A DNA stretch of 64,000 nt from an uncultured Pseudomonadales bacterium. Lineage in GTDB: Bacteria; Patescibacteriota; Microgenomatia; UBA1400. The stretch spans positions 42,554 through 106,553 of the forward strand of contig CAZPUR010000003.1 in assembly GCA_964589815.1 (NCBI GenBank), written 5' to 3'. Position numbers and translations under genes: made by a program. This document shows, piece by piece, positions 21,816-44,200 of the stretch (the first letter of the stretch is position 1; each line of letters opens with the position of its first letter). The notes beneath the pieces are model-generated. The model did not search any database, was not told the DNA's origin, and was given only the letters and a program-made list of their open reading frames with translations.

Positions 21816-22298
21816 ATGCCAAGATCAGGAAGAATTAGGAAACAATTATTGATTCCAGATCCGATTTACGGTAATCGCCAAATAATGCGTTTGGTTAATC
21901 GAGTGATGCAAGATGGCAAAAAACAAATTGCCTTTAAAGAGGTGTATCAGGCTTTAAAGATTGTTAAACAAAAGACTAAAACTGATGAGCCAGTAGAAGT
22001 TTTTCATCAAGCTTTGGAAAATATTAAACCCAATTTAGAGGTCAGGTCGCGAAGAGTTGGCGGGGCTGCCTATCAAGTCCCCATGCCTGTTAAAGGTGAT
22101 CGCCGAGAGGCTTTGGCCATCAGGTGGTTAATTTTTGCCGCTCGCAAAAGACCTAACAAGGAATATCATAGCTTTAGCGAAAAATTGGCAGCGGAAATGA
22201 TCGATGCTTCTAAAAATGAAGGTGGGGCGATTCAGAAAAAACAAGAAACCCAACGTATGGCCGATGCCAACAAAGCCTTCAGTCATTTCCGATGGTAA
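21816..22298 (+). CDS. rpsG: 30S ribosomal protein S7 (uS7)
   Basis: MPRSGRIRKQLLIPDPIYGN ... RVGGAAYQVP family pattern; str-operon position. Confidence 0.95.
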   Translation: MPRSGRIRKQLLIPDPIYGNRQIMRLVNRVMQDGKKQIAFKEVYQALKIVKQKTKTDEPVEVFHQALENIKPNLEVRSRRVGGAAYQVPMPVKGDRREALAIRWLIFAARKRPNKEYHSFSEKLAAEMIDASKNEGGAIQKKQETQRMADANKAFSHFRW

Positions 22299-22750
22299 AA
22301 ATAATCAAATTAATTTTTTCTATTTTTCTTTGCCAACTGGTAGGCTTAATTGGTTCTGTCTTTACCACCCCGGCCATTTCCAGTTGGTATGCTTATCTGA
22401 ATAAACCCAGTTTTAGTCCACCTAATTGGCTTTTCGGGCCAGTTTGGCTGAGTCTTTATACTTTAATGGGCATGAGTTTTTATTTAGTTTGGCAAAAGAA
22501 AAATAATCAAGTTGCCATTAAAGTTTTTCTTGCCCAGCTGGTCTTAAACAGTCTTTGGTCAATTATTTTCTTTGGCTTGCGTCAGCCCTTTTGGGCCTTG
22601 GTGGAAATTATTTTCCTTTGGTTTTTGATTTTACTCACGATTTTAAAATTTAAAAAAATTTCTCGATTAGCCAGCCTACTTCTGATTCCCTATCTTTTAT
22701 GGGTCAGTTTCGCCAGCCTTCTTAATTTTTATATTTTTAAGTTAAATTAA
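22292..22750 (+). CDS. tspO: TspO/MBR-family tryptophan-rich sensory membrane protein
   Basis: WYAYLNKPSFSPPNWLFGPVWLSLYTLMGMSFYLVW is the canonical TspO signature. Five TM segments. Confidence 0.85.
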   Translation: MVKIIKLIFSIFLCQLVGLIGSVFTTPAISSWYAYLNKPSFSPPNWLFGPVWLSLYTLMGMSFYLVWQKKNNQVAIKVFLAQLVLNSLWSIIFFGLRQPFWALVEIIFLWFLILLTILKFKKISRLASLLLIPYLLWVSFASLLNFYIFKLN

Positions 22751-22968: not shown

Positions 22969-23006
22969 ATCTTTTAGTTGTAATTCACTAAGTTAGAAGC
23001 CTATTG

Positions 23007-23059
23007 ATGCTTCCTTTAGGGGTCTTTGACCTTGAGCTTAGACCGAAAGGAAGCATTTT
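23007..23059 (+). terminator. long hairpin plus U-tract in the fusA leader (attenuator-like)
   Basis: ATGCTTCCTTT pairs with AAAGGAAGCAT (11 bp), inner GGTCT/AGACC, followed by TTTTGGTTG. Ends 27 nt before the fusA ATG. Confidence 0.5.
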
Positions 23060-23086
23060 GGTTGAAAAAAGGTTAAAATAAAAAAG

Positions 23087-25280: not shown

Positions 25281-26459
25281 ATGGCGACATTTCAACGCAC
25301 TAAGCCACATGTGAATATTGGTACCATTGGTCATGTTGACCATGGCAAAACTACCCTTTCGGCCGCTATTACTCAATTTTTAGCCAAGAAAGGCCAGGCA
25401 GAAGCTTTAAAGTTCGAAGACATTGATAAAGCTCCTGAAGAAAAGGAAAGGGGAATTACTATTTCCATTACTCATTTAGAGTACGAGACTGATAAAAGAC
25501 ACTACGCCCATATCGACTGTCCCGGCCACAAAGATTATATTAAAAATATGATTACGGGCGCCGCCCAGATGGATGGCGCCATTTTAGTCGTGGCCGCCAC
25601 TGATGGCCCTATGCCTCAAACTAGAGAGCATATTCTTTTAGCCCGCCAGGTTAATGTGCCGGCAGTGGTGGTTTTTCTTAATAAAGTTGATGCGGTTGAG
25701 GACAAAGAACTACTGGATTTGGTAGAGATGGAGATTAGAGAGCTTTTGAAAAAATATAAATTCCCCGGAGACAAGATTCCTATCATTAAAGGCTCGGCCC
25801 TAAAGGCCTTACAAGGAGATGAGGAAGCTCAAAAATCAATAGAAGAACTGCTTAAAGCCATAGACGATTATATTCCTACTCCCGAAAGGCCGATTGACAA
25901 ACCATTCTTAATGCCCATTGAAGACGTTTTCTCTATTAAAGGAAGAGGAACAGTAGTCACTGGCAGGATTGCCCGAGGAAAAGTCAAGGTAGGCGAGGAA
26001 GTAGAGATTGTGGGTATTAAAGATACCAAAAAAACTACCGTCACCGGCGTGGAAATGTTTAGAAAACAACTTGATGAAGGTCAGGCTGGTGATAATGTAG
26101 GGATTTTATTAAGAGGGGTTGATAAAAAGGACGTAGAAAGAGGTCAAGTTTTAGCCAAACCTGGAACGACCAAGCCTCATACTGAGTTTGAGTCAGAGGT
26201 TTACATTCTCACTAAGGAAGAGGGCGGTCGTCATACACCTTTCTTTACTGGTTACAAACCTCAATTCTATGTTGGCACTACTGATGTTACCGGCGAAGTG
26301 CAGCTACCTAAGGGAGTGGAGATGGTAATGCCTGGTGATAATGCCAAAATGACAGTTAAGTTAATTGTTCCTGTGGCCATGGAGGAAAGCCTGAGATTTG
26401 CTATCCGTGAGGGGGGCAAGACTGTGGGCGCTGGAGTTATCTCAAAAATTTTAAAATAA
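25281..26459 (+). CDS. tuf: elongation factor Tu
   Basis: [18 protein letters not shown] and NKVD motifs. SD AGGAGG upstream. Confidence 0.98.
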
Positions 26460-26470
26460 AATATCTAAAT

Positions 26471-26493
26471 CCCCCCGACGTAACATCGGGGGG
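26471..26493 (+). repeat. GC hairpin CCCCCCGA-CGTAACA-TCGGGGGG overlapping the rpsJ SD
   Basis: 8-bp stem. The 3' arm runs into GGAG, 9 nt before the ATG at 26505. Inverted relative at 32112-32129. Confidence 0.75.
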
Positions 26494-26504
26494 AGCACTT
26501 TCAA

Positions 26505-26813
26505 ATGGCAAAACAGAGGATTAGGGTCAAATTAAAAGCTTTTGATCACCGGATTATCGATGAATGTTGTCAGAAAATATTACAGACGGCTTTATCTACC
26601 GGAGCTAAAGTTATTGGGCCAGTGCCTTTACCCACAAGGAGAAAGACGATTACAGTGACCACTAGTCCACACACTGATAAAGATGCCCGAGAGCATTTTC
26701 AGATTCTAACTCATAAACGGTTGATTGATATTATCCAGCCGACGGATAAAACAATTGATAGTTTAATGCATTTGGAATTGCCGGCGGGAGTCGGGATTGA
26801 AATTAAGATGTGA
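26505..26813 (+). CDS. rpsJ: 30S ribosomal protein S10 (uS10)
   Basis: [17 protein letters not shown] ... [16 protein letters not shown] family pattern. Confidence 0.95.
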
Positions 26814-26833
26814 TAAATTAAACACTCAAAATT

Positions 26834-26859
26834 TGGCCCGGTTTAAGGGCCATTTTTTT
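26834..26859 (+). terminator. intrinsic-terminator-like hairpin between rpsJ and rplC (TGGCCC-N7-GGGCCA + T7)
   Basis: 6-bp GC stem followed directly by seven T. Confidence 0.55.
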
Positions 26860-26892
26860 AGAGAGTTTATAGTGTCGTTACGGAGCGAATTT

Positions 26893-26950
26893 GTCATTCT
26901 GGAGCGAAGCGATAGAATCCCTTGGGATCCTTTGCTGTGCTCAGGATGAT
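26893..26950 (+). repeat. head-to-head pair of GTCATYCTG-type repeats forming one long hairpin
   Basis: GTCATTCTGGAGCGAAGCGATAGAATCCC / GGGATCCTTTGCTGTGCTCAGGATGAT. Arm differences are mostly T-versus-C (G.U in the sense RNA). The 3' arm covers the ATG at 26946. Confidence 0.75.
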
Positions 26951-26960
26951 TAATCATTCC

Positions 26961-27521
26961 ATGATTAATCAATTTTATGGATTTAAGATAGACCAACAAC
27001 AAACCTTTAATAATGAGGACAAGCGGTTAGTGGTGACCAAAATTAAAGTAGAGCCTTTAGAAGTCAAGCGGGTGAAAAATGAGGCTAAAGATGGCTATTG
27101 GGCTTTACAAGTTAAGGTGGGTAAGTTTCTCAGAGAGTTAAGATTAAATGAAGAACTTAAAATCAAGCCAGGAGAAAAAATCAATCCTGGCTCGGTTTTT
27201 AAAAAAGCTGATCGAGTTCAAGTAAAAGGCATAACTAAAGGCAGAGGTTTTGCAGGCGTGGTTAAACGCTGGGGTTTTCATGGAGGACCTAAAACCCATG
27301 GACAGTCTGATAGAGCGAGAGCTCCGGGTTCAATTGGTCAAGGAACTAGCCCGGGTCGGGTTTGGAAAGGCAAAAAAATGCCCGGCCATATGGGGAATAA
27401 ACCTAAAACTATTAAAGGCCTTAAGGTTTTTAAAATAGATGAAGATAAAGGCGAACTTTGGTTGGCTGGAGTAGTTCCAGGCAATAAAGGAGGACTACTC
27501 AAAATTAGCAAAATAGGCTAA
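26961..27521 (+). CDS. rplC: 50S ribosomal protein L3 (uL3)
   Basis: KGRGFAGVVKRWGFHGGPKTHGQSDRARAPGSIG motif. Start set at ATG 26961 by alignment logic to L3 N-termini; 26946 is possible. The caller's TTG at 26922 lies in the hairpin. Confidence 0.9.
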   Translation: MINQFYGFKIDQQQTFNNEDKRLVVTKIKVEPLEVKRVKNEAKDGYWALQVKVGKFLRELRLNEELKIKPGEKINPGSVFKKADRVQVKGITKGRGFAGVVKRWGFHGGPKTHGQSDRARAPGSIGQGTSPGRVWKGKKMPGHMGNKPKTIKGLKVFKIDEDKGELWLAGVVPGNKGGLLKISKIG

Positions 27522-27626
27522 TTTTGAGTAATAGCCAAATAATCCAATAAACGAATACTCAAATACTCAAAAAAATAATTTGTTTATTGGAAATATTGGA
27601 AATATTAGTTTATTTGAGTATTAATT
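27522..27626 (+). repeat. rplC-rplD spacer module with reciprocal TTTGAGTA / TACTCAAA and CCAATAAAC / GTTTATTGG complements
   Basis: TTTGAGTA at 27523 and 27613; TACTCAAA at 27555 and 27564; 9-bp complement 27544-52 / 27581-89. TATTGGAAA x2. Confidence 0.65.
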
Positions 27627-28262
27627 ATGCAAATTGATGTTATTAGTATCAGCGGCAGAAAATTAAGCCAGATGACCATTCCGGCAGAGATTTTTAATGC
27701 CAAAATTAATAATGTCTTAATGGTTCAGGCGGCTCGTGTTTTTTCAAGCAATCAACGCCAAAGTCCAGCCAAGACCAAAAGACGGGGAGAAATTAATCTT
27801 TCTGGTAGAAAAATTTACCGCCAGAAAGGTACAGGTCGGGCCAGACACGGAGACAAAAAGCCCGGCATTTTTGTTAAAGGTGCTAAAGCCCATGGTCCGA
27901 CCGGCGAGCAGAATTTTAAACTCAAAATAAGCAAAAAAATGAGAAGATTAGCCTTATACAGCGCCTTAAGTTATAAATTTAAAGAGAAAGAAGTAATGGT
28001 GATGAGCGGATTAGATAAAATTGAACCTAAAACCAAACAAATGACTAAAGTTATTAATCATCTAATCAATAAATCCCGCAAATTCACTTTTGTATTGCCA
28101 TCTAAATTGGAAAATGTAATTCGGGCAGGAAGAAATATAGCCGGAGTAAATTTAATCCAGGCAAGACAGCTAAACGCTTATCAGGTTTTAAATGCTGGCC
28201 AATTAGTTTTTATGAAAGAAAGTATTGAAGTTTTAAAAGACACGTTTATTAAGAAAAGATGA
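27627..28262 (+). CDS. rplD: 50S ribosomal protein L4 (uL4)
   Basis: RQKGTGRARHG motif; operon position. Confidence 0.95.
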   Translation: MQIDVISISGRKLSQMTIPAEIFNAKINNVLMVQAARVFSSNQRQSPAKTKRRGEINLSGRKIYRQKGTGRARHGDKKPGIFVKGAKAHGPTGEQNFKLKISKKMRRLALYSALSYKFKEKEVMVMSGLDKIEPKTKQMTKVINHLINKSRKFTFVLPSKLENVIRAGRNIAGVNLIQARQLNAYQVLNAGQLVFMKESIEVLKDTFIKKR

Positions 28263-28609
28263 ATATCAATCAAGTTATTAAAAAACCACTAATTACAGAA
28301 AAAGCGATGGCGTTAGCTAAGGAGGGTAAGTATACTTTTATAGTTGATATCAAGGCTGATAAAAAAAAGGTTAAACAAGCCCTAGGAGTTTTATTTGGCG
28401 TTCAGGCAATTAAGGTTAATCTTTTAAAATATAAGGGAAAGAAAAAAAGAGCTTTTCGAATGCGCAAATTGATTAAAAAATCAGATTATAAAAAAGCAAT
28501 AGTGCAACTGAAAGAGGGTCAAAAAATAGAATTTTTTGAAGAAATTTCTGGAAAGAAGAAGGATAAATCCCGGCGCAAAGGCCGAGGATCGTCCTCTGGA
28601 CGAAAATGA
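28259..28609 (+). CDS. rplW: 50S ribosomal protein L23 (uL23)
   Basis: [11 protein letters not shown] start. ATGA overlaps on both sides. Confidence 0.93.
28587..28605 (+). repeat. GATCGTCCTCTGGACGAAA hairpin element forming the rplW tail and abutting the rplB ATG
   Basis: TCGTCC-TCT-GGACGA stem. Same core as 44211-44230 and 55047-55066. Confidence 0.7.
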
Positions 28610-29442
28610 AGGATTTTAAAATTTACAAACCAGTGACTGCCGGCAGAAGAAACCGGCTGGATCTTGTCAGTCGAGCCTTAAAAGTGAAGCCAGAGAAAAA
28701 ATTACTGGAAATTTTACCTAAAAGGTCAGGTCGAAACAATGCCGGTAAAATAACCGTTAGACATCAAGGTGGTCGGCAAAAAAGATTTTTGAGAAAAATT
28801 GATTTTAAACGCGAAAAACGTGGAATTTCCGCTAAAGTGTTCAGTATTGAATACGATCCTAACCGCTCAGCTAACATTGCCTTGATAGTTTATGAAGATG
28901 GAGAAAAAAGCTATATTCTGGCGCCTAAAGGACTAAAAATTGGAGCGAAAATTGAGACTGGTAAAAATGCTGATTTAAAGATAGGCAATGCCCTGCCTTT
29001 GAGAAAAATCCCTTTAGGAATGCCGATTCATAATTTGGAATTAAGCCCGGGTAAAGGGGCTCAGATAGTCAGAGGAGCCGGCACCGCCGCCCTGATCCAG
29101 TCAAAAGAAAAAAATTATGCCAGCGTCAAGCTACCTTCAGGAGAATTAAGGAAAATAAGCCTTGATTGTATGGCTACTTTGGGACAGATAGGCAATATTC
29201 ATGTTAAAGATGTATCTTTAGGTAAAGCTGGTAGAAAAAGACATCGAGGTATTAGACCATCAGTTCGGGGAGTAGCCATGCATCCTGGAGCTCATCCTCA
29301 TGGAGGCGGTGAAGGTCGGTCTGGTATAGGTATGCCCTCACCTAAGTCGCCTTGGGGTAAAAGGACTTTGGGAAAGAAAACCAGGAAAAAGAAGAAATAC
29401 TCTGATAAATATATTCTTAGAGACAGGAGAAAAAAATTATGA
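28606..29442 (+). CDS. rplB: 50S ribosomal protein L2 (uL2)
   Basis: [17 protein letters not shown] motif. Confidence 0.97.
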
Positions 29443-29723
29443 GCCGTTCATCTAAAAAAGGACCATATATTGACCAAAAACTTTTGAAAAAAGTTATGGC
29501 CCAGAAAAACTTAGCTAAAAAAGAACCGATTAAAACTTGGGCGAGAGCTTCTCAGATCCCACCTGAATTTGTTGGTCATAGTTTTAAAGTCCATAATGGC
29601 AGGACTTTTATCGAAGTTTTTATTAATGAAGCTATGGTTGGCCATCGTTTAGGAGAATTTGCTCCTACTCGAACCTTTAGGGGTCATGGTAAAGTGGTCA
29701 AAAGGGTAATAACTAAAACATAA
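29439..29723 (+). CDS. rpsS: 30S ribosomal protein S19 (uS19)
   Basis: [11 protein letters not shown] ... HNGRTF ... [11 protein letters not shown]. Confidence 0.96.
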
Positions 29724-29730
29724 AGGAGAA

Positions 29731-29834
29731 TTGTTACATTGTTACATTGTTACATTGTTGATAGTTTTTTGTAATACAAATCGGAAGGCTACTGTTAGCA
29801 ATGAAGCAATGAAGCAATGAAGCAATGAAGCAAT
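29731..29834 (+). repeat. foldback spacer: (TTGTTACA)x3 + TTGTTGAT on the 5' arm, (GCAATGAA)x4 on the 3' arm
   Basis: Units pair in register (per 8 nt: 6 Watson-Crick, 1 G.U, 1 A.A). Helix base at 29731/29833. Confidence 0.8.
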
Positions 29835-30221
29835 TTGTTAATTAAGGCGGAACAAAAATACGTTAGAATAAGCCCTCAAAAAATGAGGTTGGTGGCGACT
29901 GCGGTTAAAAACCTTGTTCCTGAAGAAGCTTTAGACAAATTAAAATTTTTAAATAAAAGAGCCGCCCAGCCTTTGGCTAAAGTTATTAAGCAGGCCTTGG
30001 CCAATGCAACCAATAATTTTAAATTAAAAAAAGAAAGCTTAAAATTTAAAAGTATTCAAATAAGAAAAGGATCAACTTATAAACGATGGAGATCAGTTTC
30101 TCGGGGTAGAGCCCATTCAATATTTAAAAGAACGAGTCATATCAGGGTGATATTGGAGAGCAAAGAGCGAAACGAAAAGAGCAAAGATGCAGATCAAATA
30201 TCAAAAAGAAAAGGCAAATAA
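29835..30221 (+). CDS. rplV: 50S ribosomal protein L22 (uL22), TTG start
   Basis: (M)LIKAEQKYVRISPQKMRLVA matches the L22 N-terminus. The TTG is the end of the last degenerate repeat unit. Confidence 0.92.
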   Translation: MLIKAEQKYVRISPQKMRLVATAVKNLVPEEALDKLKFLNKRAAQPLAKVIKQALANATNNFKLKKESLKFKSIQIRKGSTYKRWRSVSRGRAHSIFKRTSHIRVILESKERNEKSKDADQISKRKGK

Positions 30222-30222
30222 T

Positions 30223-30354
30223 GGAATTACAAATCACAAGCACCAAATATCAAATAAATTCAAAGCACCAAATTAAAAATTCTAAACGTTTTGAATTTAA
30301 AAATTTTAATTTGAATATTGTTTGGAGTTTGGAGTTTGGAGTTTGGAGTTTTCC
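30223..30354 (+). repeat. foldback spacer, ACCAAAT/ATTTGGT family copy C1, with (TTTGGAG)x4
   Basis: GGAATT..(A)GTTTTCC closing pairs, AAATTCAAA/TTTGAATTT core. Shares AATTACAAATCACAA (15 nt) with 33910-33924. Confidence 0.7.
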
Positions 30355-30371
30355 GACAGAAGGGAGGCAAT

Positions 30372-31028
30372 TTGGGTCAAAAAATTCACCCTTTCGGTTT
30401 TCGGTTGGGTAAACTTTACTCTTGGAAATCAAGATGGTTTGCCCAAAAACAGAATTACCAAAAGTTTTTATTAGAGGATTTTAATTTAAGAAAGTTTCTG
30501 GAAGACAAGCTCCAATTGGCGGGTTTGGTTAGAGCAGAAATTGAGCGTTCAATTAATACTATTAAGATTATTCTTTATGTTTCTCGTCCGGGAGTGGTTA
30601 TTGGTCGAGGCGGTTCCGGTCTGGAAACCTTGAAAAAAGAAATTAATAAAAAATTAAAAATTGATCCCAAAGACCCCAAGCAACTAAAAGTTGATTTGGA
30701 AGTCAGAGAGGTAAAAAATCCCGAGCTTTCAGCCCGATTAATAGCTCAAAGGATAGCCTTTCAGCTTAAAAAAAGGTATCCTCATCGTCGAGCGGTGGCT
30801 CAGGCAATGGAAAGAGTTATGGCCGCTGGTGCTAAAGGAGTAAAAATTGTTCTCGCTGGCCGAATCGCTGGCGCGGAAATTTCTAGAACAGAAAAGTATT
30901 CTAAAGGAAGGGTGCCTTTGCAAACCTTAAGAGCAGACATTGATTATGCTCAAATGCCAAGCCTGACCAAATCTGGCTATATTGGCATAAAAATTTGGAT
31001 TTATAAAGGAGAAGAAGAAGTTAAGTAA
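30372..31028 (+). CDS. rpsC: 30S ribosomal protein S3 (uS3), TTG start
   Basis: (M)GQKIHPFGFRLG is the canonical S3 N-terminus. SD GGGAGG sits 5 nt upstream. The caller's upstream extension is repeat-encoded. Confidence 0.93.
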   Translation: MGQKIHPFGFRLGKLYSWKSRWFAQKQNYQKFLLEDFNLRKFLEDKLQLAGLVRAEIERSINTIKIILYVSRPGVVIGRGGSGLETLKKEINKKLKIDPKDPKQLKVDLEVREVKNPELSARLIAQRIAFQLKKRYPHRRAVAQAMERVMAAGAKGVKIVLAGRIAGAEISRTEKYSKGRVPLQTLRADIDYAQMPSLTKSGYIGIKIWIYKGEEEVK

Positions 31029-31068
31029 AAGTTGACTATCAATAAACAACTTAATCAACTAAAAAACA
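31029..31068 (+). repeat. short copy (3' part) of the TTAAGTAGTTGATTA...CTATCAATAAACAACTTAATCAACTAAAAAACA family
   Basis: 31035-31068 is identical over 34 nt to 33058-33091 and ends at the rplP ATG. Confidence 0.8.
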
Positions 31069-31479
31069 ATGTTACAGCCAAAAAAATTAAAATACCGAAA
31101 GCATTTTCGTGGCACTAGAGCAGGAATAGCCACGGCCGGTAACGCTTTAGAGTTTGGTGAATATGGACTTAAAAGCTTAGGTAGGGGCTGGTTGAAAAGT
31201 GCTCAAATTGAGGCGGCTAGGAAAACAATAGCTCATTATACCAAAAGACAGGCTAAGCTTTGGATTAGAGTTTTTCCTGACAAAACTTATACCCAGAAAT
31301 CAGCTGGGAGCAGAATGGGGCAAGGAAAAGGCGATTTGCAGGGTTATGTAGCCGTAGTCAAACCAGGCCGGATTATTTTTGAGTTGGCAGGGGTAGAAAA
31401 AGAAATTGCCCAGGAAGCCATTAGACGGGCTGGTGCCAAATTACCTTTTAAAACGCGGTTTATAGAAAGAGAGCAGTAG
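31069..31479 (+). CDS. rplP: 50S ribosomal protein L16 (uL16)
   Basis: [15 protein letters not shown] start. Confidence 0.96.
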
Positions 31480-31502
31480 ACAAACGTTATTGAATATAAA
31501 AT

Positions 31503-31718
31503 ATGGCTAAAAAATCAAAAGCAGATAACAAGCTTGAATTACAAAAGCTCTCAATTCCCGAGCTTAACAAGTTGTTAAGACAAAGTCAGACAGAATGGCT
31601 AAAGCTAAAATTGGAACTGAAAACAGGTAAATTAAAAAACCTTCATCAGTCCAGACAAAAAAGAAAAGAGATTGCTCGGATTAAAACAATTATTAGAGAA
31701 AAGGAATTAGTAAAATAG
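31503..31718 (+). CDS. rpmC: 50S ribosomal protein L29 (uL29)
   Basis: Size, position and the [20 protein letters not shown] pattern. Confidence 0.88.
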
Positions 31719-31797
31719 AAATAAGTTCAAAAGTTCATTAAGTTCATAGAGTTAATAGTAAAAAATTACTCATAACTTGTTGAGCTCATAACTAATT
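31719..31797 (+). repeat. foldback spacer, GTTCATTAAGTTCAT family copy A1
   Basis: Alignable to 34454-34547 and 41368-41463. Ends ...ATAACTAATT directly at the rpsQ GTG. Confidence 0.75.
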
Positions 31798-32025
31798 GTG
31801 AAACAATTAACCGGTACAGTTGTCAGCATTAAGATGCAAAAAAGTGCGGTGGTCAAAGTTGACAGAACCTACCGTCATCCTTTATATAAAAAAACCATTA
31901 AAAAAAGTAAAAAATATTTAGTTGATAATCAACTTAAGGTTAAAAAAGGAGATAAAGTGATTATTCAAGAGTGCCGGCCAATAAGTAAGAGTAAGAGGTT
32001 TAGAATCATTAGAGTTATTAAGTAG
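31798..32025 (+). CDS. rpsQ: 30S ribosomal protein S17 (uS17), GTG start
   Basis: LTGTVVSIKMQKSAVVKVDRTYRHPLYKK pattern. Confidence 0.93.
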   Translation: MKQLTGTVVSIKMQKSAVVKVDRTYRHPLYKKTIKKSKKYLVDNQLKVKKGDKVIIQECRPISKSKRFRIIRVIK

Positions 32026-32173
32026 TGTATTAAGTAGTTGATTAGGTCCGACGCGATGGTCGGACCGTTAACTGATAGTTAACTGATAGTTTCTACCCAG
32101 TCAACGCGAGTCCTGACGTTACGTCGGGGCGAGCTAGTTAACCATAAATTAACTACTTAATTGACTATAAACG
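32026..32173 (+). repeat. foldback spacer, TTAAGTAGTTGATTA family copy with nested GC hairpins
   Basis: ATTAAGTAGTT (32030-40) is complementary to AACTACTTAAT near 32147-57. Nested GGTCCGAC-N6-GTCGGACC (32045-66) and CCTGACGTTACGTCGGGG (32112-29). (TTAACTGATAG)x2. Confidence 0.7.
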
Positions 32174-32548
32174 ATGATCCAATTACACACCATTTTAAAA
32201 CCAGCAGATAATTCTGGCGCCAAACGTTTAAGGGTGATTCATATCCATGGCGGCTCAACCCGCCCTTTTGGTTCTATTGGTGATATTACTACTTGTGCGG
32301 TTGACCAGGCTGATCCGCAGGGAATAGTTAAAGACTCACAATTGGTTAAAGTGGTTATCGTTAGAACCAAAAAAGAGATTAGAAGACCAGATGGTTCTTA
32401 TATTCGTTTTGATGATAATGCGGGTGTGGTGATCGAGAGTTTAAAAAATAAAGTGCCGGTGGGAACAAGAATTTTTGGTCCTATTGCCAGAGAGATAAAA
32501 GATTTAGGTTATAGCAAGATTGTTTCTATGGCATCGGAGGTGTTGTGA
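32174..32548 (+). CDS. rplN: 50S ribosomal protein L14 (uL14)
   Basis: [19 protein letters not shown] start. Confidence 0.96.
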
Positions 32549-32567
32549 TTCAAAGAATCACAACACC
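32539..32567 (+). repeat. perfect 13-bp hairpin (GGTGTTGTGATTC-AAA-GAATCACAACACC) containing the rplN stop codon
   Basis: Read directly. TGA at 32546-48 lies in the 5' arm. Confidence 0.8.
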
Positions 32568-32601
32568 CTGACCCCGTATTTATGCGGGAGAAGGATCTCA
32601 A

Positions 32602-32940
32602 ATGAAAAAGAATAAGCCAATTAGATTGAAAATGAAAATCCGCAAAGGAAATACTGTTAAAGTTATGGCTGGAAAAGATAAAGGTAAAACCGGCAAGGTG
32701 GAAAAAGTTTTACCTAAAGTTGCTGCAGTCTTAGTAGAAGGAGTTAATAAGTATAAAAAACATCTTAAACCCCAGGGTGAAGGTAAACCTGGTGGTATTG
32801 TAGAGATAAGTAAACCTTTACCTGTGGCTAATGTGGTTTTGCTCTGTCCCAAGTGCCAAAAACCAACCCGTGTGGGTTACCAAACAGACAGGAGTAATAA
32901 AAAATATAGAATTTGTAAAAAATGCAAGGAGGCAATATAA
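32602..32940 (+). CDS. rplX: 50S ribosomal protein L24 (uL24), with C-terminal CxxC..CxxC zinc-ribbon-like tail
   Basis: KGNTVKVMAGKDKGKTGKV KOW motif. Tail CPKCQKPTRVGYQTDRSNKKYRICKKC. Confidence 0.92.
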   Translation: MKKNKPIRLKMKIRKGNTVKVMAGKDKGKTGKVEKVLPKVAAVLVEGVNKYKKHLKPQGEGKPGGIVEISKPLPVANVVLLCPKCQKPTRVGYQTDRSNKKYRICKKCKEAI

Positions 32941-33091
32941 GTGTTAATTAAGTAGTTGATTAACTCGTTAACGCTCGTGTTAATTAGGTAGTTAATTAAC
33001 TAGTTTAATATAGTCCTATCAATCAACATGATCCGCCAGCTGGCGGAGAATAAATTAACTATCAATAAACAACTTAATCAACTAAAAAACA
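32941..33091 (+). repeat. foldback spacer, TTAAGTAGTTGATTA family, full copy
   Basis: 33015-33089 is identical over 75 nt to 41177-41251. TAGTTGATTA (32952-61) pairs with TAATCAACTA (33075-84). Carries palindrome TCCGCCAGCTGGCGGA (33032-47). Confidence 0.85.
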
Positions 33092-33646
33092 ATGAGTCGT
33101 TTACAACAAAAATACCAAAAAGAAATTGTTCCGGAGTTAAAAAAGGAATTTAAGATTAAAAATGATCTGGCTGTGCCTAAGGTAGCAAAAGTGGTACTTA
33201 ATGTGGGGATTGGCGAAATCGCTCATGATAAACAGGCTTTGGAAAAAGCCAAAAATACTTTAGCGGCCATTACCGGTCAGAAACCTTTAATTCGTCCGGC
33301 CAAAAAAGCAATTGCTGATTTTAAGATTAGAAAAGGCAATTCAGTCGGTCTTAAAGTAACTTTAAGAAGGAAAAGAATGTATGATTTTTTAGATAAACTA
33401 TTCTCTTTGGTTTTACCCTTGGTGCGTGATTTTCAGGGAGCTAAGCAGAATGCCTTTGATCAAGATGCCAATTATACCTTAGGCTTAAAAGAGCAGGTTA
33501 TTTTTCCTGAGGTGGACTATGATAAAATTGACAAGGTTCGAGGGATGGAGATTAGTATTGTTATCTCGACTAAAGACAAGAAAAAAGCAGCTAGATTGTT
33601 AGAATTAATGGGAATGCCGTTTACTAAGGAGGAATTAGGAAATTAG
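33092..33646 (+). CDS. rplE: 50S ribosomal protein L5 (uL5)
   Basis: SRLQQKYQKEIVPELKKEF start and the NVGIGE region. Confidence 0.95.
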   Translation: MSRLQQKYQKEIVPELKKEFKIKNDLAVPKVAKVVLNVGIGEIAHDKQALEKAKNTLAAITGQKPLIRPAKKAIADFKIRKGNSVGLKVTLRRKRMYDFLDKLFSLVLPLVRDFQGAKQNAFDQDANYTLGLKEQVIFPEVDYDKIDKVRGMEISIVISTKDKKKAARLLELMGMPFTKEELGN

Positions 33647-33653
33647 GATAAAA

Positions 33654-33705
33654 GTGATTAGTCAAAAAAAGACTAATCACTAATCACTAATCACTAATCA
33701 CTAAA
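33654..33705 (+). repeat. 10-bp perfect hairpin (GTGATTAGTC-A7-GACTAATCAC) followed by (TAATCAC)x4
   Basis: The heptamer array 33674-33701 places TAA in all three frames just before the S14 start position. Confidence 0.8.
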
Positions 33706-33891
33706 ATCGCTAAAGTTTCTAAATTTGCTAAACAGCAAAAAAAACCAAAATTTTCTAGCCGGAAGCACAACCGCTGTAAAATTTGCGGTCGACCCAGGGC
33801 CTATATTAGGCTTTTTGGCCTTTGCCGTTTATGTTTTCGTCAAATGGCCCATAAAGGAGAATTACCAGGGGTAACTAAAGCCAGCTGGTAA
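33706..33891 (+). CDS. rpsZ: 30S ribosomal protein S14 type Z (uS14), apparent ATC start
   Basis: Absent from the ORF track. Own translation: (I)[60 protein letters not shown]. 61 codons, CxxC..CxxC, collinear with Zn-type S14. No ATG/GTG/TTG in frame after the stop at 33688-90. Confidence 0.85.
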
Positions 33892-34034
33892 GCTTTAAAG
33901 AAATGACCAAATTACAAATCACAAATTCCAAACAATATCAAAACACCAAATTCAAAATCCAAAACTGTTTTGAATTTGAATATTTGAATTTAGGATTTAT
34001 TTGTCATTTGGTATTTGGTGCTTGGAATTTAAGC
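33892..34034 (+). repeat. foldback spacer, ACCAAAT/ATTTGGT family copy C2
   Basis: Base pairs GCTT/AAGC (33892-95 / 34031-34), ACCAAAT/ATTTGGT (33906-12 / 34013-19), and further pairing along the arms by manual tracing. Confidence 0.75.
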
Positions 34035-34054
34035 ATTAGTGAACGGAGTGAACA

Positions 34055-34453
34055 ATGCTGACAGATCCTATTGCTGATATGTTAATCAGAATCAAAAATG
34101 CCTGCTTGGCTAAGAAAAACCAGGCAGTACTGCCTTATTCTAAAATCAAAGAAAAAATCGCTAAAATTTTTCTTAGTCAAGGCTATCTTAATCAGGTTAA
34201 AAAAGAAAGCTTAAAGAATAAACAAGGAGAGGTTTTGATTTGTGACTTAAAGTATGAAAAAAACAGTTCAGTTATAAGAAACATACAAAGGGTTTCCAAA
34301 CCAGGGATGAGGGTTTATTTATCTTGGAAAAAATTACCCAGGCCTAGTTTTGGTATGGGGATAAGTATTATTTCTACCTCTAAAGGGTTAATGACCAATG
34401 CTGAGGCAATTAAGAAGAGACTAGGAGGAGAAGTAGTCTGTAAAATTTGGTAA
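34055..34453 (+). CDS. rpsH: 30S ribosomal protein S8 (uS8)
   Basis: MLTDPIADMLIRIKNA start. Confidence 0.96.
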   Translation: MLTDPIADMLIRIKNACLAKKNQAVLPYSKIKEKIAKIFLSQGYLNQVKKESLKNKQGEVLICDLKYEKNSSVIRNIQRVSKPGMRVYLSWKKLPRPSFGMGISIISTSKGLMTNAEAIKKRLGGEVVCKIW

Positions 34454-34547
34454 ATAAAGAGAAATAAGAAAAGAGTTCATTAAGTTCATGGAGTTAATAG
34501 TAAAAAAAATTACTCATAACTCATAACTTGTTGAACTAATAACTAAT
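34454..34547 (+). repeat. foldback spacer, GTTCATTAAGTTCAT family copy A2
   Basis: GAGTTAAT/ATTACTC top stem and GTTCAT units opposite ATAAC units. Ends ...ATAACTAATT at the rplF TTG. Confidence 0.75.
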
Positions 34548-35102
34548 TTGTCTAAAGTTGGAAAGCAACCTATTAAAATACCCGAAGGAGTAACGGTTGA
34601 GATTAAACCTAGTCAAGTGATCGTTAGTGGTCCCAGGGGAAGTTTGACTCAGGAAATCAGGTCGGAGATAAAAGTTGAAAAAAAGGAAAACCAGATTTTA
34701 GTTCAACCAAACTCGCAAAGTAAACTGGTTAAGTCTTTACACGGTTTACTAAGAAGCCTGATTGCCAACATGATTCAGGGAGTGACTAAAGGTTTTGAAA
34801 AAACTTTAGAACTACAGGGAGTCGGCTACCGCGTCAATTTAGAACAGGAAAATTTAACCTTAGCTTTAGGTTTTTCTCATCCGGTAGTAGTTAAACCACC
34901 TGAAGGAATTAAATTTCAGGTAGAAGGCAATAATTTGATTAGAGTTTTAGGTATTGATAAACAATTAGTTGGTCAGATAGCCGCTGGAATTAGAAGGATT
35001 AGACCGCCGGACAGCTACAAAGGCAAAGGCATAAGATACGAGGGTGAAGTGATTAAGTTAAAGCCTGGCAAGGCGGCCAAGACAGAAGCAGCCGCAACAT
35101 AA
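34548..35102 (+). CDS. rplF: 50S ribosomal protein L6 (uL6), TTG start
   Basis: (M)SKVGKQPIKIPEGV is the canonical L6 N-terminus. Confidence 0.95.
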   Translation: MSKVGKQPIKIPEGVTVEIKPSQVIVSGPRGSLTQEIRSEIKVEKKENQILVQPNSQSKLVKSLHGLLRSLIANMIQGVTKGFEKTLELQGVGYRVNLEQENLTLALGFSHPVVVKPPEGIKFQVEGNNLIRVLGIDKQLVGQIAAGIRRIRPPDSYKGKGIRYEGEVIKLKPGKAAKTEAAAT

Positions 35103-35114
35103 GGAGTCTAAATA

Positions 35115-35528
35115 ATGATTAAACGTTACAAGCATAAAACGCTTAAAAGAAAAATCAAGATCAGGGCCAAACTTTTGAAAATAGGTCGAAGACCCAGGTT
35201 ATCTGTTTTTCGTTCTAATAAATATATTTATGCCCAGATTATTGATGACCAAAAAGGAAAAACACTGGCGGCGGCTAGTGAAAAAGACATAAAAGAAAAC
35301 TCCAATCCGCCAGCTGGCGGACCAAAACTCCCCCGACCTCGCCTCGGCTCGGCCGAGGGCGGGCAAAACTCCAAGATTAACAGAGCGTTTCAGGTGGGTC
35401 AAATCTTGGCCAAGAAAGCCTTAAAAATAAAGATTAAAAAAGTATATTTTGACCGCGGCGGCTATAAATATCATGGCCTGATTAAAGCCTTAGCTGAGGG
35501 TGCCAGAAAAGGAGGACTGGAGTTCTAA
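35115..35528 (+). CDS. rplR: 50S ribosomal protein L18 (uL18) with a 23-codon GC-rich insertion
   Basis: RLSVFRSNKYIYAQIIDD and GGYKYHG motifs. Insertion NPPAGGPKLPRPRLGSAEGGQNS. Confidence 0.93.
   Translation: MIKRYKHKTLKRKIKIRAKLLKIGRRPRLSVFRSNKYIYAQIIDDQKGKTLAAASEKDIKENSNPPAGGPKLPRPRLGSAEGGQNSKINRAFQVGQILAKKALKIKIKKVYFDRGGYKYHGLIKALAEGARKGGLEF
35295..35371 (+). repeat. two adjacent GC palindromes, each bounded by the 8-nt direct repeat AAAACTCC (three copies)
   Basis: AAAACTCC at 35295, 35323 and 35364. Cores TCCGCCAGCTGGCGGA (35305-20) and CCCGACCTCGCCTCGGCTCGGCCGAGGGCGGG. Periods 28 + 41 = 69 nt. Confidence 0.85.
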
Positions 35529-35582
35529 TCCGCCAGCCTCGCTGAGCGGGGCCAGCTGGCAGACTAATTCCTAATTTCTAAA

Positions 35583-36071
35583 ATGCAAAGACAGAGACAG
35601 AGAGAATTTGATAATAAGCAATTCTGGGGCAAGAAGGAATTTGAAGAAAAGGTAGTTCAAGTTAAAAGAGTTTCAAAGAAAACTAAAGGCGGTAATCAAA
35701 TTAGATTTACAGCTTTGGTAGTAGCAGGGAATAAAAAGGGGAAGGTAGGCGTGGGCTTAGGTAAAGCCCCAGATGTTCTATCAGCCATTCAAAAAGGCAC
35801 CCGTTTAGCCAAAAAAAATCTGATTAATGTTCCTATACAAGCAGGAACCATCAGCCATGATGTTTATGTTAAAAGGGGGGCGGCTAAAGTTTTATTAAGG
35901 TCTGCGCCCGAGGGTACGGGTGTGATTGCTGGCGGGCCGGTAAGATATGTAGTTGAGGCAGCTGGAGTGAGGAATATTGTTTCTAAAATTTTAGGCACCA
36001 AAAATAAAGCTAGCAATATTTATGCCACTATAGAGGCATTGAAGCAGTTAAAGAGGAGAAAGGATAAATGA
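35583..36071 (+). CDS. rpsE: 30S ribosomal protein S5 (uS5)
   Basis: VVQVKRVSKKTKGGNQIRFTALVVAGN pattern. Confidence 0.95.
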   Translation: MQRQRQREFDNKQFWGKKEFEEKVVQVKRVSKKTKGGNQIRFTALVVAGNKKGKVGVGLGKAPDVLSAIQKGTRLAKKNLINVPIQAGTISHDVYVKRGAAKVLLRSAPEGTGVIAGGPVRYVVEAAGVRNIVSKILGTKNKASNIYATIEALKQLKRRKDK

Positions 36072-36700
36072 AACTCAACAAACTATCCCAAACAACCAAA
36101 ACAACCAAAAAAAGAGTTGGCCGCGGTTATGGTTCAGGCAAGGGCGGTCATACAGCTGGTCGAGGCCAGAAAGGCCAAAAATCACGAAGTAAAGTAGGCT
36201 TGCTTTTTGAAGGCACGAAAATGCGCAAGTCTTTAATCAGGCGTCTACCAATGCAGAGAGGCAAAGGTAAATTTAAGTCTTTTAAAAGCAAACCAATTAT
36301 TTTGAATGTTAAATATTTGAATCTTTTGAAAAGTGGGACTAAAGTAGATGTGGAAGTTTTAATTAAAGAAGGTTTGGTGGCCAAAGAAGCCTTAACCTTA
36401 GGAATGAAAATTCTAGGTGATGGGGTTTTAGAGAAGAAACTGACAGTAGTTTTGCCAGTTTCTCAGGGAGCCAAGAAAAAAATCGAAAAAGCTGGAGGCA
36501 AGGTGATAAACGCGAAAGACGCTAAAAAAAGAGAGGCGAAAAAACCTAAAATTCGTAAGCAGATTAAAAAATCACAAAAATCCTCAAAGACCAAAGAAAC
36601 CAGAACTACCCGAAAAAAACCAACCACAAAAACTAAAATAAAAAGAGGCAGTCCCGCCTTGACTCAGACTCGGCGAGGCAGGCAAAAAAAAACTAAATGA
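36068..36700 (+). CDS. rplO: 50S ribosomal protein L15 (uL15) with a long Lys-rich C-terminal extension
   Basis: [28 protein letters not shown] motif. Overlaps rpsE by 4 nt, so no rpmD between them. Confidence 0.93.
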
Positions 36701-37986
36701 ATCGCATTCTTCAGCCCATTATCAACGCCTTTAAGGTTTCCGAACTGAGAAAGAAAATTGTTTTTACCTTGCTAATGTTCATTGTTTTCAGGTTGACAGC
36801 CCATATTCCCGTTCCTGGAGTTGACCTGGAAGCTTTAAAAATGCTTTTTTCCCGTAATCAATTTTTAGGCCTTTTAGATATTTTCTCTGGCGGTACTTTA
36901 ACCAATTTTTCCATTATTGCCATCGGCCTTTCTCCCTATATTAACGCTTCCATTATTTTACAGCTTTTAACTATGGTTTTCCCCAAATTAGAAGAATTAA
37001 GTAAAGAGGGTGAATTAGGAAGAGAAAGAATTAATCAATACACTCGTTTTTTAACCATTCCTTTAGCTATTTTTCAGTCCGTGGGAATGATGGCGATTTT
37101 AAAAAAGCAGCAGATTTTTACCAGCTTAAATTTTCTCAATCTGGGTTTAATTGTGGTAACCATGACCAGCGGTTGTTTATTTTTAATGTGGTTAGGAGAA
37201 CTGATTACCCGTTATGGAATTGGTAACGGTATTTCTTTATTGATTTTTGGTGGGATTGTGGGTCGTCTACCGGTTTCTTTAGCGCAAACAGTTTCTTTAG
37301 TGGAAACAGTTAGTTTTTTTAATCTCTTGGTTTTTGTGGTTATGGCGATTGGGGTTATCGCCGCCATTTGTTTTGTCAATGAAGCCCAAAGGCAAATTAC
37401 AGTTTCTTATGCCCGCAGGGTTCAGGGCCGAAAGATGTATGGCGGTTCCAGTACTCATCTGCCTTTAAGAGTAAATCAAGCAGGAGTTATTCCTATTATT
37501 TTTGCTGTTTCTTTGGTCTTGATTCCCAATATGCTGGCCACTTGGTTGCAGACCTTGCCTAATCAAAAACTGGCCAATTTGGCCGTTTTTATGGCTCGGC
37601 TTTTTGATCCTCAAAGCCTTTTTTATAATCTTTTTTACTTTCTACTGGTAATTGCTTTTACTTATTTTTATACCGCCGTCACTTTTAATCCTGAAAAAAT
37701 CGCCGAAGAAATTAAAAAACATGGCGGTTTTATTCCAGGCATTAGACCCGGCAAACCTACGGCCGAGTACCTGAATTATATTTTAACCCGGATCACTTTG
37801 GCTGGCGCAGTTTTTTTAGGTCTGGTGGCGATTTTACCTTCTCTAGCCCGAGTTTTAACCGGCGTCACCACCATGATGATTGGCGGCACTGGTATTTTAA
37901 TCGTGGTTTCAGTCATTTTAGAAACCAGCAAATCTTTGGAAGCTCAACTTTTAATGAGAAATTATGATGGATTTTTAAAGGAGTAA
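36697..37986 (+). CDS. secY: preprotein translocase subunit SecY
   Basis: 429-aa polytopic protein with SecY motifs ([23 protein letters not shown]). Confidence 0.96.
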
Positions 37987-38136
37987 ATTTTCAATTTTCA
38001 AATCCCAATTTTCATTGAATTTTCAAATCCCAATTTTCAAACTGCATTTAAAAAGATCAAAAAAGTTTGAGAATTAAAAAATTGTAAATTAATTATTCAT
38101 TGTAAATTGAAAATTGTTAAATTGAAAATTAAAATT
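37986..38136 (+). repeat. foldback spacer between secY and adk with (ATTTTCAAATCCCAATTTTCA)x2
   Basis: 37986-38001 pairs with 38122-38136 (15 bp, one bulged C at 37992) by manual pairing. The helix base joins the last nt of the secY TAA to nt -1 of the adk ATG. Confidence 0.75.
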
Positions 38137-38727
38137 ATGTACATAATTTTCTACGGTCCTGAAGGTTCAGGTAAAACCACCCAGGCCAAATTGCTGGCCG
38201 AAAAATTAAACCTGCCTTATTTAGGTTCAGGCGATTTAGTCCGCCATTATGCTGCCCGGGATAAAGGCATTATGGGTGATGTTTGCCGCGAAGCCTTATC
38301 CATCGGCCATTATGTGCCTGATTCAGAAATGTTTGTTTTATGGAAACAGCGTTTAAAAGAGTCGGATGTCCAAAGTGGTTGGATTTTAGATGGTTTCCCG
38401 CGCAACGACACTCAAGCAGATTTTTTAGATGATAAATTAGATAAATATGGAAAAAAAGTAGATGCGGTTTTTTATATCAAAGTTAAGGAGAGTACTTCGA
38501 TTAAACGTCTGACCAAACGCGGCCGCCGCAATCCGGATGGCAGTTTACATGATGATCCTAAAAAAGTCCGGGAGAGACTGCGGATTTATAAAAAGGGCGA
38601 AAAGGGTGTTTTAGATTTATATAAGAAAAGAGGCGTCTTGTATGCTATTGATGGCGAGCCCAGCATTGAGCAGATTCACAAAGAGGTTTTACAGAGGGTA
38701 GAAAAACTGACTCTGGCGTCATCCTGA
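38137..38727 (+). CDS. adk: adenylate kinase
   Basis: MYIIFYGPEGSGKTTQAKLLAEKL P-loop start. The caller's TTG at 38107 lies in the repeat arm. Confidence 0.92.
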   Translation: MYIIFYGPEGSGKTTQAKLLAEKLNLPYLGSGDLVRHYAARDKGIMGDVCREALSIGHYVPDSEMFVLWKQRLKESDVQSGWILDGFPRNDTQADFLDDKLDKYGKKVDAVFYIKVKESTSIKRLTKRGRRNPDGSLHDDPKKVRERLRIYKKGEKGVLDLYKKRGVLYAIDGEPSIEQIHKEVLQRVEKLTLASS

Positions 38728-38743
38728 GCGCAGCGTAGGATCT
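38718..38743. repeat. GTCATCCTGAGCGCAGCGTAGGATCT repeat overlapping the adk stop codon
   Basis: The adk TGA (38725-27) is the TGA inside the GTCATCCTGA motif. Confidence 0.75.
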
Positions 38744-38745
38744 AT

Positions 38746-39444: not shown

Positions 39445-39445
39445 C

Positions 39446-40246: not shown

Positions 40247-40283
40247 CAGAAGGTAGAGTTGGGATATAATATATTTTATTATT

Positions 40284-40454: not shown

Positions 40455-40498
40455 AAGATTTAAATAGCCTTATACATGTAAGTGGGCAGCCGTTTCCT

Positions 40499-40753: not shown

Positions 40754-40860
40754 GACTAATTATATTCAAGCTATCAGGCTAGACAATTAGAGCCACTTCT
40801 GATAAAATAACCCTGTTATTATAAACCATCGCTATTATGGTGATGGTTGTTTAGTTTTGC

Positions 40861-40889: not shown

Positions 40890-40900
40890 AGTTTCAATTT

Positions 40901-44197: not shown

Positions 44198-44200
44198 AAT

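Follow-up and report, generated by a model that had tools for sequence, protein, structure and literature searches.

Introduction

What are long foldback sequences doing between the genes of a ribosomal-protein cluster? Few bacterial gene arrays are as compact and conserved as the S10-spc-alpha cluster, and genomes of the Candidate Phyla Radiation (CPR) are highly streamlined. The question is raised by three copies, called here C1, C2 and C3, of an AT-rich foldback sequence in a 64-kb stretch of contig CAZPUR010000003.1 (the window). The window is 37% G+C, and on its plus strand lie rpoBC, the str operon and the S10-spc-alpha cluster of ribosomal-protein genes. Its S3 protein is 72-74% identical to that of named Candidatus Beckwithbacteria (Microgenomates), and the nearest other database relatives stand at 79%. 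We conclude, with a probability of about 0.6, that C1, C2 and C3 are lineage-restricted small palindromic repeats of a mobile type, resembling MITEs (miniature transposable elements with inverted repeats) and the ERIC and Correia repeats, and not a conserved regulatory RNA.

Copies were counted in the window and in a rightward extension of 3.9 kb, which holds no element, and the counts are therefore not genome-wide. Loci from related genomes or metagenome contigs are labeled with L-numbers, and a percentage in parentheses directly after such a label is the S3 protein identity to the window.

Results

C1 and C2 are homologous hairpins that fill their spacers

The two long copies, which we assign to family A, and the tandem array that makes up one arm of C1 are as follows.

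30222-30358, plus strand: C1, family A hairpin, fills the rplV/rpsC spacer directly after the rplV stop codon.
33892-34036, plus strand: C2, family A hairpin, occupies the rpsZ/rpsH spacer starting at the nucleotide next to the rpsZ stop codon.
30320-30351, plus strand: heptamer array (GTTTGGA) x4.6, the 3' arm of C1 (Tandem Repeats Finder [TRF], 100% matches, score 64).

An initial annotation had reported 15 identical nucleotides in the two copies, and the word AATTACAAATCACAA is indeed exact at 30225 in C1 and 33910 in C2. It occurs nowhere else in the window on either strand, as is also true of the 12- and 17-nt words that C2 shares with C3. The homology extends further, with 81% identity over 70 nt by blastn (30244-30312 versus 33922-33991) and an nhmmer E-value of 2e-8 in ~0.55 Mb. 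The 17-mer, with up to three mismatches allowed, gave 4 matches versus 0.53 expected, a number reached in none of 100 shuffles.

Both copies are ~135-145 nt long and fold as a single long hairpin (C1, -34.4 kcal/mol, z = -4.4; C2, -35.1 kcal/mol, z = -4.2), and none of 200 shuffles folded as well in either case. The stems span 30223-30354 and 33892-34034, exactly the coordinates first proposed, and are closed by GGAA/UUCC and GCUU/AAGC in C1 and C2, making each copy an imperfect palindrome over its whole length. Base counts bear out the earlier description of an A/C-rich 5' arm opposite a G/T-rich 3' arm (C1: A35 C13 G5 T14 and A18 C3 G16 T33; C2: A40 C17 G3 T15 and A24 C5 G21 T38). The claim that every copy begins right after a stop codon also holds, as the copies start 0-2 nt past the TAA codons of rplV (30219-30221), rpsZ (33889-33891) and an ABC-2 permease gene (61850-61852).

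The array in the C1 3' arm places four GGAG motifs resembling Shine-Dalgarno (SD) sequences within the stem, and the 5' arm opposite it reads as degenerate xxxCAAA units. The arms of C2 have a period of 7 (x3.6 to x4.7, 69-83% matches by TRF), and its outer ends carry an E-type or C3-type module, described below. Only the arms of C1 and C2, not the whole elements, qualify as heptamer simple-sequence repeats. The stems are rich in A-U and G-U pairs, unlike the short G+C-rich stem with a U-tract of an intrinsic terminator. A promoter and terminator scan of the sense strand of both copies found no promoter-like (sigma-70-like) or terminator-like site. Rfam 15, r-protein leaders included, gave no match at the gathering score over the whole window and none within 26400-45200 at E<=1.

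C1, C2 and C3 are not assembly artefacts, since assemblies made independently from other samples agree with them at 99.99-100% identity. Metagenome contigs from this organism and its relatives start or stop within hairpins: L042 starts at window position 30290, in the C1 loop, and L043 starts (its positions 1-60) in the 3' arm of its rplV/rpsC element; the L046 and L047 contigs end at window position 60533. The JGI gene caller gave rpsC 18 extra codons that reach into the 3' arm of C1. Because contigs end in hairpins and the rpsC call was extended, the elements fragment assemblies and distort annotation.

C3 and a sister family

61853-61893, plus strand: C3 as first defined, directly after the stop codon of the ABC-2 permease gene (PF06182).
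61853-61932, plus strand: extended C3 region, a probable degenerate copy of sister family E by alignment to L171 and L030.

The short copy retains words from both ends of C2, as had been claimed. The 12-nt word AAATGACCAAAT is exact at 33901 in C2 and 61853 in C3, and the 17-nt word TTGGTGCTTGGAATTTA is exact at 34015 and 61877. C3 alone folds no better than shuffled sequence (z = +0.2). Its homology runs ~40 nt further in the 3' direction, to ~61932, and the extended region is collinear with family E of L171, L030 and L019 (73% identity over 84 columns with L171 4261-4380; 69% with the L030 copy). The 3' part of the extended region is a TTAGATTAA / TTAATTAGA-type repeat (TRF period 9, x4.7, 61891-61930). 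Because C3 aligns to family E, the 12- and 17-nt words would belong to an E-type module, and the better reading of C3 is that of a degenerate member of this family which shares a module with the ends of C2. The initial annotation had described C3 as C2 without its interior. The shared termini stand, but the homology reaches beyond the segment then defined, and two readings fit the alignment equally well: C3 may be an internally deleted C2, or the A-type core of C2 may sit within, or have recombined with, a short hairpin of E or C3 type.

Within family E itself, L171 4261-4380 (rpsC/rplP spacer) and L030 11838-11925 (infA/rpmJ spacer) are 87% identical (80 of 92 columns), although the two S3 proteins are only 52.5% identical and the spacers differ. 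This pair is the strongest hint in the aligned sequences of horizontal spread among CPR lineages.

Sister families crowd the ribosomal-protein cluster

An all-against-all comparison of spacers, by which the families were sorted, gave at least five hairpin-repeat families that together fill ~12 spacers of the S10-spc-alpha cluster. Nearly all of the cluster's spacers are 79-163 nt long and each of these is filled by a long AT-rich hairpin, most with z = -2.6 to -7.3. In addition to family A they include the following.

31719-31797, plus strand: family B hairpin, rpmC/rpsQ spacer (z = -5.3).
34454-34547, plus strand: family B hairpin, rpsH/rplF spacer (z = -6.0).
41369-41463, plus strand: family B hairpin, rpmJ/rpsM spacer (all-against-all comparison).
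32941-33091, plus strand: family C element, rplX/rplE spacer (z = -4.6).
37987-38136, plus strand: family D element, secY/adk spacer, reverse-orientation homologue of L045 and L171 spacers.
29724-29834, plus strand: single-copy hairpin, rpsS/rplV spacer, its arms perfect octamer arrays (TRF, 100% matches).
27522-27626, plus strand: single-copy hairpin, rplC/rplD spacer (z = -2.6).
33647-33705, plus strand: hairpin and perfect (ACTAATC) x4.7 array, rplE/rpsZ spacer (z = -7.3).

The arms of the rpsS/rplV hairpin consist of ATTGTTAC x3.8 and AGCAATGA x4.8, and the family D element ends in ATTTTCAATTT/AAATTGAAAAT. A second copy of family C (41120-41253) matches the first over 76 nt at 100% identity, and further pieces of the family are a 37-nt 3' fragment (31035-31071) and a distant copy (32026-32173). 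The identical stretches of 76 nt and 37 nt, which lie in different spacers of one genome, point to very recent copying within that genome. Elsewhere the families are nearly absent: ~12 elements lie in the 18.5-kb ribosomal-protein cluster versus one (C3) in the other 45 kb and the 3.9-kb extension. Structured spacers outside the cluster are of other kinds (tRNAs, G+C-rich stems), and only the C3 region among them belongs to the hairpin families.

Two observations concern the genes and repeats next to these elements. The frame of rpsZ (S14 type Z, 33706-33891) lacks an in-frame ATG, GTG or TTG, and its conserved N-terminus (IAKVSKFAK...) starts at an ATC codon immediately behind the (ACTAATC)n array; this points to a non-canonical start codon. 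The rpsQ/rplN element contains the 11-nt repeat GTTAACTGATA x2.3 (32067-32091), within which lies TAACTGA.

Relatives have compact spacers or different elements

The S3 protein scans of genome and metagenome contigs yielded distant relatives (<=62% identity), which served as compact-spacer controls. Corresponding spacers are mostly 0-15 nt in nine CPR genomes (48-60% S3 identity), and they are also compact in the closer L013/14 (79%), L015-18 (76%) and L170 (74%). Since spacers are compact in most relatives, the hairpins are lineage-specific additions and dispensable. Expanded spacers with hairpins are found in L019 (75%), L045 (78%) and L171 (75%).

An A-type hairpin occupies the orthologous rplV/rpsC spacer of L019 (E=3e-7 to C2). 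Another lies at rplV/rpsC in L037; there the end of the rplV coding sequence forms the 5' arm, and the GGAGG of rpsC seems to lie within the 3' arm, the SD pairing having been worked out by hand from the fold. The L043 contig starts within a G/T-rich 3' arm that ends in the cGACGAAAGGAG module, and its rplV/rpsC spacer probably holds an A-type hairpin as well. Weak nhmmer matches in L025/L026 (inside rplD) and in L036 were dismissed as spurious. A scan of viral contigs with AATTACAAATYACAA gave more than 120 matches, all single and due to chance; by nhmmer, no match was homologous to C1, C2 or C3.

Other matches join spacers that do not correspond. Window 41372-41408, in the family B hairpin of the rpmJ/rpsM spacer, is identical at 36 of 37 positions to L019 13295-13331 in the rpsZ/rpsH spacer. 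This is the highest-identity non-trivial nucleotide match between the window and L019, whose coding matches are ~79-89%. Family D lies in secY/adk in the window, in rplD/rplW in L045 and in rplC/rplD in L171 (~150 nt, 82%; nhmmer E=2e-6, minus strand). In this alignment identity reaches 91-95% at the two ends around a divergent centre, and the window copy is opposite in orientation. The same spacer is also filled by different families in different genomes. Identity between copies of these families in different genomes (87-97%) is far above that of the coding sequence. Such near-identity at non-orthologous sites, the strongest evidence for mobility, is expected of elements moving within and between genomes and not of a vertically inherited regulatory RNA.

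Strand polarity

The strict strand asymmetry of the copies had been taken as a sign of selection at the RNA level, and their orientation as a check on it. All six A-like hairpins do have the A/C-first polarity and the sense orientation, and family A proper is sense in the three window copies, L019 and L037; family D, in contrast, occurs in both orientations. The polarity cases are not independent, because C1 and the L019 and L037 hairpins may be orthologous.

Folding energies give part of the same picture. For the whole C1 spacer (30222-30371) the sense RNA folds at -38.0 kcal/mol, with 8 G-U pairs, versus -24.1 for the antisense, and for L037 the values are -32.8 and -19.5 kcal/mol. Sense and antisense folding are equal in C2, and in L019 the antisense RNA is more stable than the sense, so that among A-type hairpins the sense advantage is confined to C1 and L037. 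Across C1, C2 and L019, 2 of 21 consensus pairs are changed on both sides, three sequences being too shallow a set for covariation. The copies all share one strand, on which the window's GC skew is mostly of one sign, and transcription and replication orientation are therefore inseparable here. A replication-strand insertion bias would be an alternative to RNA-level selection on the hairpins, which is not established.

The single-copy rpsS/rplV hairpin is the clearest strand-specific RNA structure in the window, with a sense fold of -36.7 kcal/mol (z = -6.1, 9 G-U pairs) versus -15.4 for the antisense. Its 3' array abuts the TTG start of rplV and contains tandem ATGs.

Translation downstream of the hairpins and open frames through them

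30355-30374, plus strand: ribosome-binding module GACAGAAGGGAGG followed by the rpsC TTG start (30372), just 3' of the C1 hairpin.
30221-30412, plus strand: open frame through C1, 63 codons, its ATG overlapping the rplV stop codon (TAATG).
33903-34061, plus strand: open frame through C2, 52 codons, its TGA overlapping the rpsH ATG (ATGCTGA).
61855-61923, plus strand: open frame through C3, 22 codons, beginning MTKSQMVLGAWNL, in the frame of the C2 open reading frame (ORF) at both shared ends.

The GACAGAAGGGAGG module is unpaired in the main stem of C1, and C2 is followed by a GGAG SD at ~34044 and the rpsH ATG at 34055. A cGAC-N-GAA(A/G)GGAG module stands after hairpins in L019 (two spacers), L171 (two spacers) and L043, and within each genome its copies have been homogenised. 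Abutting genes have their SD inside the upstream coding sequence, and in the compact genome L025/26 the sequence GACTAAGAAAGGAG forms the native junction of rplV stop and rpsC SD. Because L025/26 carries it there, the SD module may have originated at this native junction and may now travel with the element. Genes behind families B and C and behind most other hairpins lack an SD and have conserved A/U-rich leaders instead. The leader (...AATAAACAACTTAATCAACTAAAAAACA) is found at 31035-31071, 33058-33094 and 41220-41251 and ends at the ATG of rplP, rplE and rpmJ, the identical stretch being 37 nt long at rplP and rplE and 32 nt long at rpmJ.

C1, C2, C3 and the L019 copy are all free of stop codons in the homologous frame. 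With a 5' arm poor in T and a 3' arm poor in A, arm-wise shuffles leave such a frame open with a probability of 0.13 (C1) and 0.09 (C2). Among 5.8 billion proteins, the predicted 52-aa product of the C2 ORF matches only itself (P0121). The shared frame is suggestive only.

Discussion

How the elements may have arisen and may be tolerated

The elements would be dispersed, non-autonomous, imperfectly palindromic AT-rich sequences of ~80-150 nt that have entered stop-to-start junctions between co-directional genes, or been copied from one such junction to another, chiefly in the S10-spc-alpha cluster. Their location at such junctions suggests that they are transcribed within the polycistronic mRNA, where they would fold into long A-U/G-U hairpins. 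Their tolerance would rest on continued translation of the downstream gene: family A would bring a portable ribosome-binding site, the unpaired SD module behind the hairpin, which seemingly travels with the element. The arms, built of 7-8 nt units, would be constantly remodelled by replication slippage, as their perfect tandem arrays suggest, and modules would be swapped between families, as at the ends of C2 and in C3 and family E. Any function would be that of a tolerated, co-transcribed hairpin that possibly modulates mRNA processing or stability.

The initial annotation had inferred a non-autonomous mobile element from conserved termini with variable interiors. In substance the mobile-element reading is supported, though not proven, by the present alignments: copies are dispersed, with three of family A in 64 kb, the corresponding spacers of most relatives are empty, and near-identical copies occupy non-orthologous sites. 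Several observations weigh against it. No direct repeat, and thus no target-site duplication, flanks C1, C2, C3 or the family D and E copies, and no close empty site fixes their boundaries; nor could a sharp insertion boundary common to the copies be defined. None of the ~40 non-ribosomal ORFs of the window encodes a transposase domain (IS, TnpA/RAYT or TnpB). Only three family A copies are known in the genome, and all family A copies are in the sense orientation, which is unexpected for a randomly inserting DNA element. The link between C3 and family E is weak by nhmmer (E=0.02-0.04), short-repeat sequences can inflate similarity statistics, and co-transcription and RNA folding are assumptions.

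Alternative explanations

The uniform polarity and exact placement of the hairpins, from stop codon to ribosome-binding site, are what would be expected if they were selected cis-acting RNA elements of the ribosomal-protein mRNA. They could be processing sites for RNase III or RNase Y, 3'-end stabilisers, or devices for translational coupling or insulation, and their family likeness would reflect shared function and gene conversion with no transposition. All A-like copies are sense, the sense RNA is much more stable in C1, L037 and the rpsS/rplV hairpin, and the L037 arms, which join the coding end of rplV to an apparent rpsC GGAGG, form a classic coupling arrangement. RNase Y is encoded in the window, and there is a precedent in the heptamer-arm hairpin of the Haemophilus influenzae hmw1A 5' untranslated region (5'-UTR), which is cleaved by RNase III (PMC12721329). 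However, the hairpins are missing from the corresponding spacers of most close relatives, which makes them dispensable, and a given spacer is occupied by different families in different genomes. Family D is found in both orientations, C2 and L019 have no sense-strand advantage, and compensatory change affects few of the consensus pairs. We therefore consider this explanation unlikely, if still a serious one, and it is compatible with mobile repeats if the function is a secondary co-option. A bolder proposal would make the elements undescribed 'intercistronic cassettes' of Patescibacteria, which spread horizontally, are specific for stop-to-start junctions in highly expressed operons and carry a translation-initiation module and a stop-free frame. 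Their movement would involve neither a classical transposase nor a target-site duplication, but perhaps a single-strand or RNA-linked route tied to transcription or replication polarity, and they would secondarily rewire the processing and stoichiometry of ribosomal-protein mRNAs. This we regard as speculative and rather doubtful.

Two further explanations dispense with mobility. The perfect tandem 7-8-mers of the arms, and stems made of register-flexible CAAA:UUUG blocks, could indicate that the hairpins grew in place from heptamer seeds by slippage and fold-back template switching, their similarity being CAAA/TTTG convergence with neither mobility nor function. Heptamers are in fact the commonest long simple-sequence repeats of bacteria and occur upstream of start codons, also in the ribosomal-protein operons of Beggiatoaceae (PMC4679880). 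Yet convergence does not account for unique-sequence matches of this length (exact words of 15, 12 and 17 nt; 76 nt at 100%; 36/37 and 80/92 between genomes), and the collinear order extends over ~150 nt with non-repetitive ends included, so in-place growth is disfavoured and in our estimate very improbable. The least probable is that the elements are small protein genes or translated bridging ORFs, each with a frame that begins at an ATG on or close to the upstream stop codon and stays open through the hairpin. The ATG does lie 0-11 nt after that stop codon (in L019, just before it), the homologous frame is open throughout in C1, C2, C3 and L019, and all in-element stop codons (7 and 10) are confined to the other two frames. 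The C2 frame ends on the rpsH start, and in L037 the homologous sequence is read as the C-terminal tail of L22. But the ATGs lack a preceding SD, 9-13% of shuffles have the frame open from arm composition alone, the copies do not count as independent cases, and the C2 peptide has no homologues. Open frames are moreover a known by-product in ERIC, RPE and YPAL elements (PMC2229807), and the small-protein reading was rejected. The preferred explanation thus remains that of small mobile-type palindromic repeats.

If this is correct, small mobile palindromes can colonise even the S10-spc-alpha operon, and the near-identical copies in genomes whose S3 proteins are only 52-78% identical suggest that such palindromes circulate among Microgenomates. 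As a practical matter, the hairpins break metagenome assemblies and mislead gene callers, as with the extended rpsC and spurious small ORFs. They also offer natural test cases for the effects of intercistronic structure on the processing and translation of ribosomal-protein mRNA in unculturable organisms.

Other features of the window

Several structures lie outside the hairpin families. A twin G+C-rich hairpin motif, ATCAGCC-nnn-GGCTGAT CGTCC-TTT-GGACG AAAT, is found at 44199-44232 and 55034-55067 (97% identical), in the sense orientation just upstream of rplM and recA. The spacer between the RNase Y and HU genes (58436-58619; z = -6.6) contains a 24-nt unit x3.5 and two G+C-rich hairpins, and rpoB is preceded by a long structured leader (13986-14283; z = -5.6). 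In the str operon, a TspO/MBR family gene and then a 55-codon ORF stand between rpsG and fusA (22292-22750), followed by a terminator-like G+C hairpin and U-run at 22992-23086. A stand-alone 104-aa protein with a GIY-YIG nuclease domain is encoded at 13671-14062, immediately upstream of tRNA-Cys. Finally, a 29-nt inverted match (97%) connects 1177-1205, in a heptamer array of TTTGCTC type close to the window's left end, with 30157-30185, in an array of AGAGCAA type coding for the C-terminal tail of L22, which is rich in Lys and Glu.

Comparison with known repeats

The closest parallels are the ERIC (IRU) and YPAL repeats of enterobacteria and Yersinia, which are imperfect palindromes of 127-168 bp in transcribed intergenic regions (PMC2229807). 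Like them, the hairpins described here are of similar size, palindromic over their whole length, placed between genes that would be co-transcribed and predicted to form a long RNA stem-loop; they contain ORFs, and their presence varies among relatives. For ERIC and YPAL, orientation-dependent effects on the stability of flanking mRNA are described (PMC2229807, citing De Gregorio 2005). The present elements differ in having no sequence similarity to these repeats, in belonging to another phylum, in arms of 7-8 nt tandem units and in their concentration in the ribosomal-protein cluster, and TA ends or a target-site duplication are not demonstrated here. The Correia (NEMIS) element of Neisseria is likewise a co-transcribed non-autonomous palindrome, whose hairpin is a proposed RNase III substrate that modulates adjacent mRNAs (PMC2229807). 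The likeness is that of a small non-autonomous palindromic repeat beside genes, with co-transcription suggested here by position, but the 24-26 bp terminal inverted repeats, TA duplication, IHF site and promoter elements of Correia were not found in our copies.

In anatomy C1 corresponds to the hmw1A hairpin of H. influenzae, in which a perfect heptamer arm faces a degenerate complementary arm; that hairpin is cleaved by RNase III and varies in repeat number by slippage (PMC12721329). C1, known from its sequence alone, has the identical arrangement of (GTTTGGA) x4.6 opposite a degenerate xxxCAAA arm. The hmw1A hairpin, however, is a single 5'-UTR locus serving adhesin phase variation and is neither dispersed nor intercistronic. 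Heptamer repeats such as TAACTGA (LSSR/STRR) are known from Beggiatoaceae, cyanobacteria and Bacteroidetes; they lie directly upstream of start codons, in many cases where no SD is present, and also at sites inside ribosomal-protein operons, with a patchy and possibly horizontal distribution (PMC4679880). The window shares heptamer arrays near starts and even holds a TAACTGA-containing repeat, in the rpsQ/rplN element noted above. Those repeats are direct repeats for which long hairpins are not reported, whereas the arrays here are the arms of inverted-repeat elements with unique ends.

REP sequences are 20-40 bp long, G+C-rich and headed by GTAG or CGTC (PMC3733652). REPs and their composite BIMEs are, like the present elements, extragenic palindromes after stop codons in operons, and they can stabilise upstream mRNA. 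Our elements differ in being 80-150 nt long and ~70-80% A+T (GC 0.19-0.31) with no GTAG or CGTC head at their ends, and REPs are mobilised by RAYT, which is not encoded in the window. Membership in any named repeat family is thus not supported, as sequence similarity, a REP tag and an Rfam match are lacking and duplication and transposase are not demonstrated. What sets these hairpins apart from known palindromic repeats is their heptamer-unit arms, their dense occupation of the ribosomal-protein cluster from stop codon to start codon, and their apparent spread among divergent CPR lineages.

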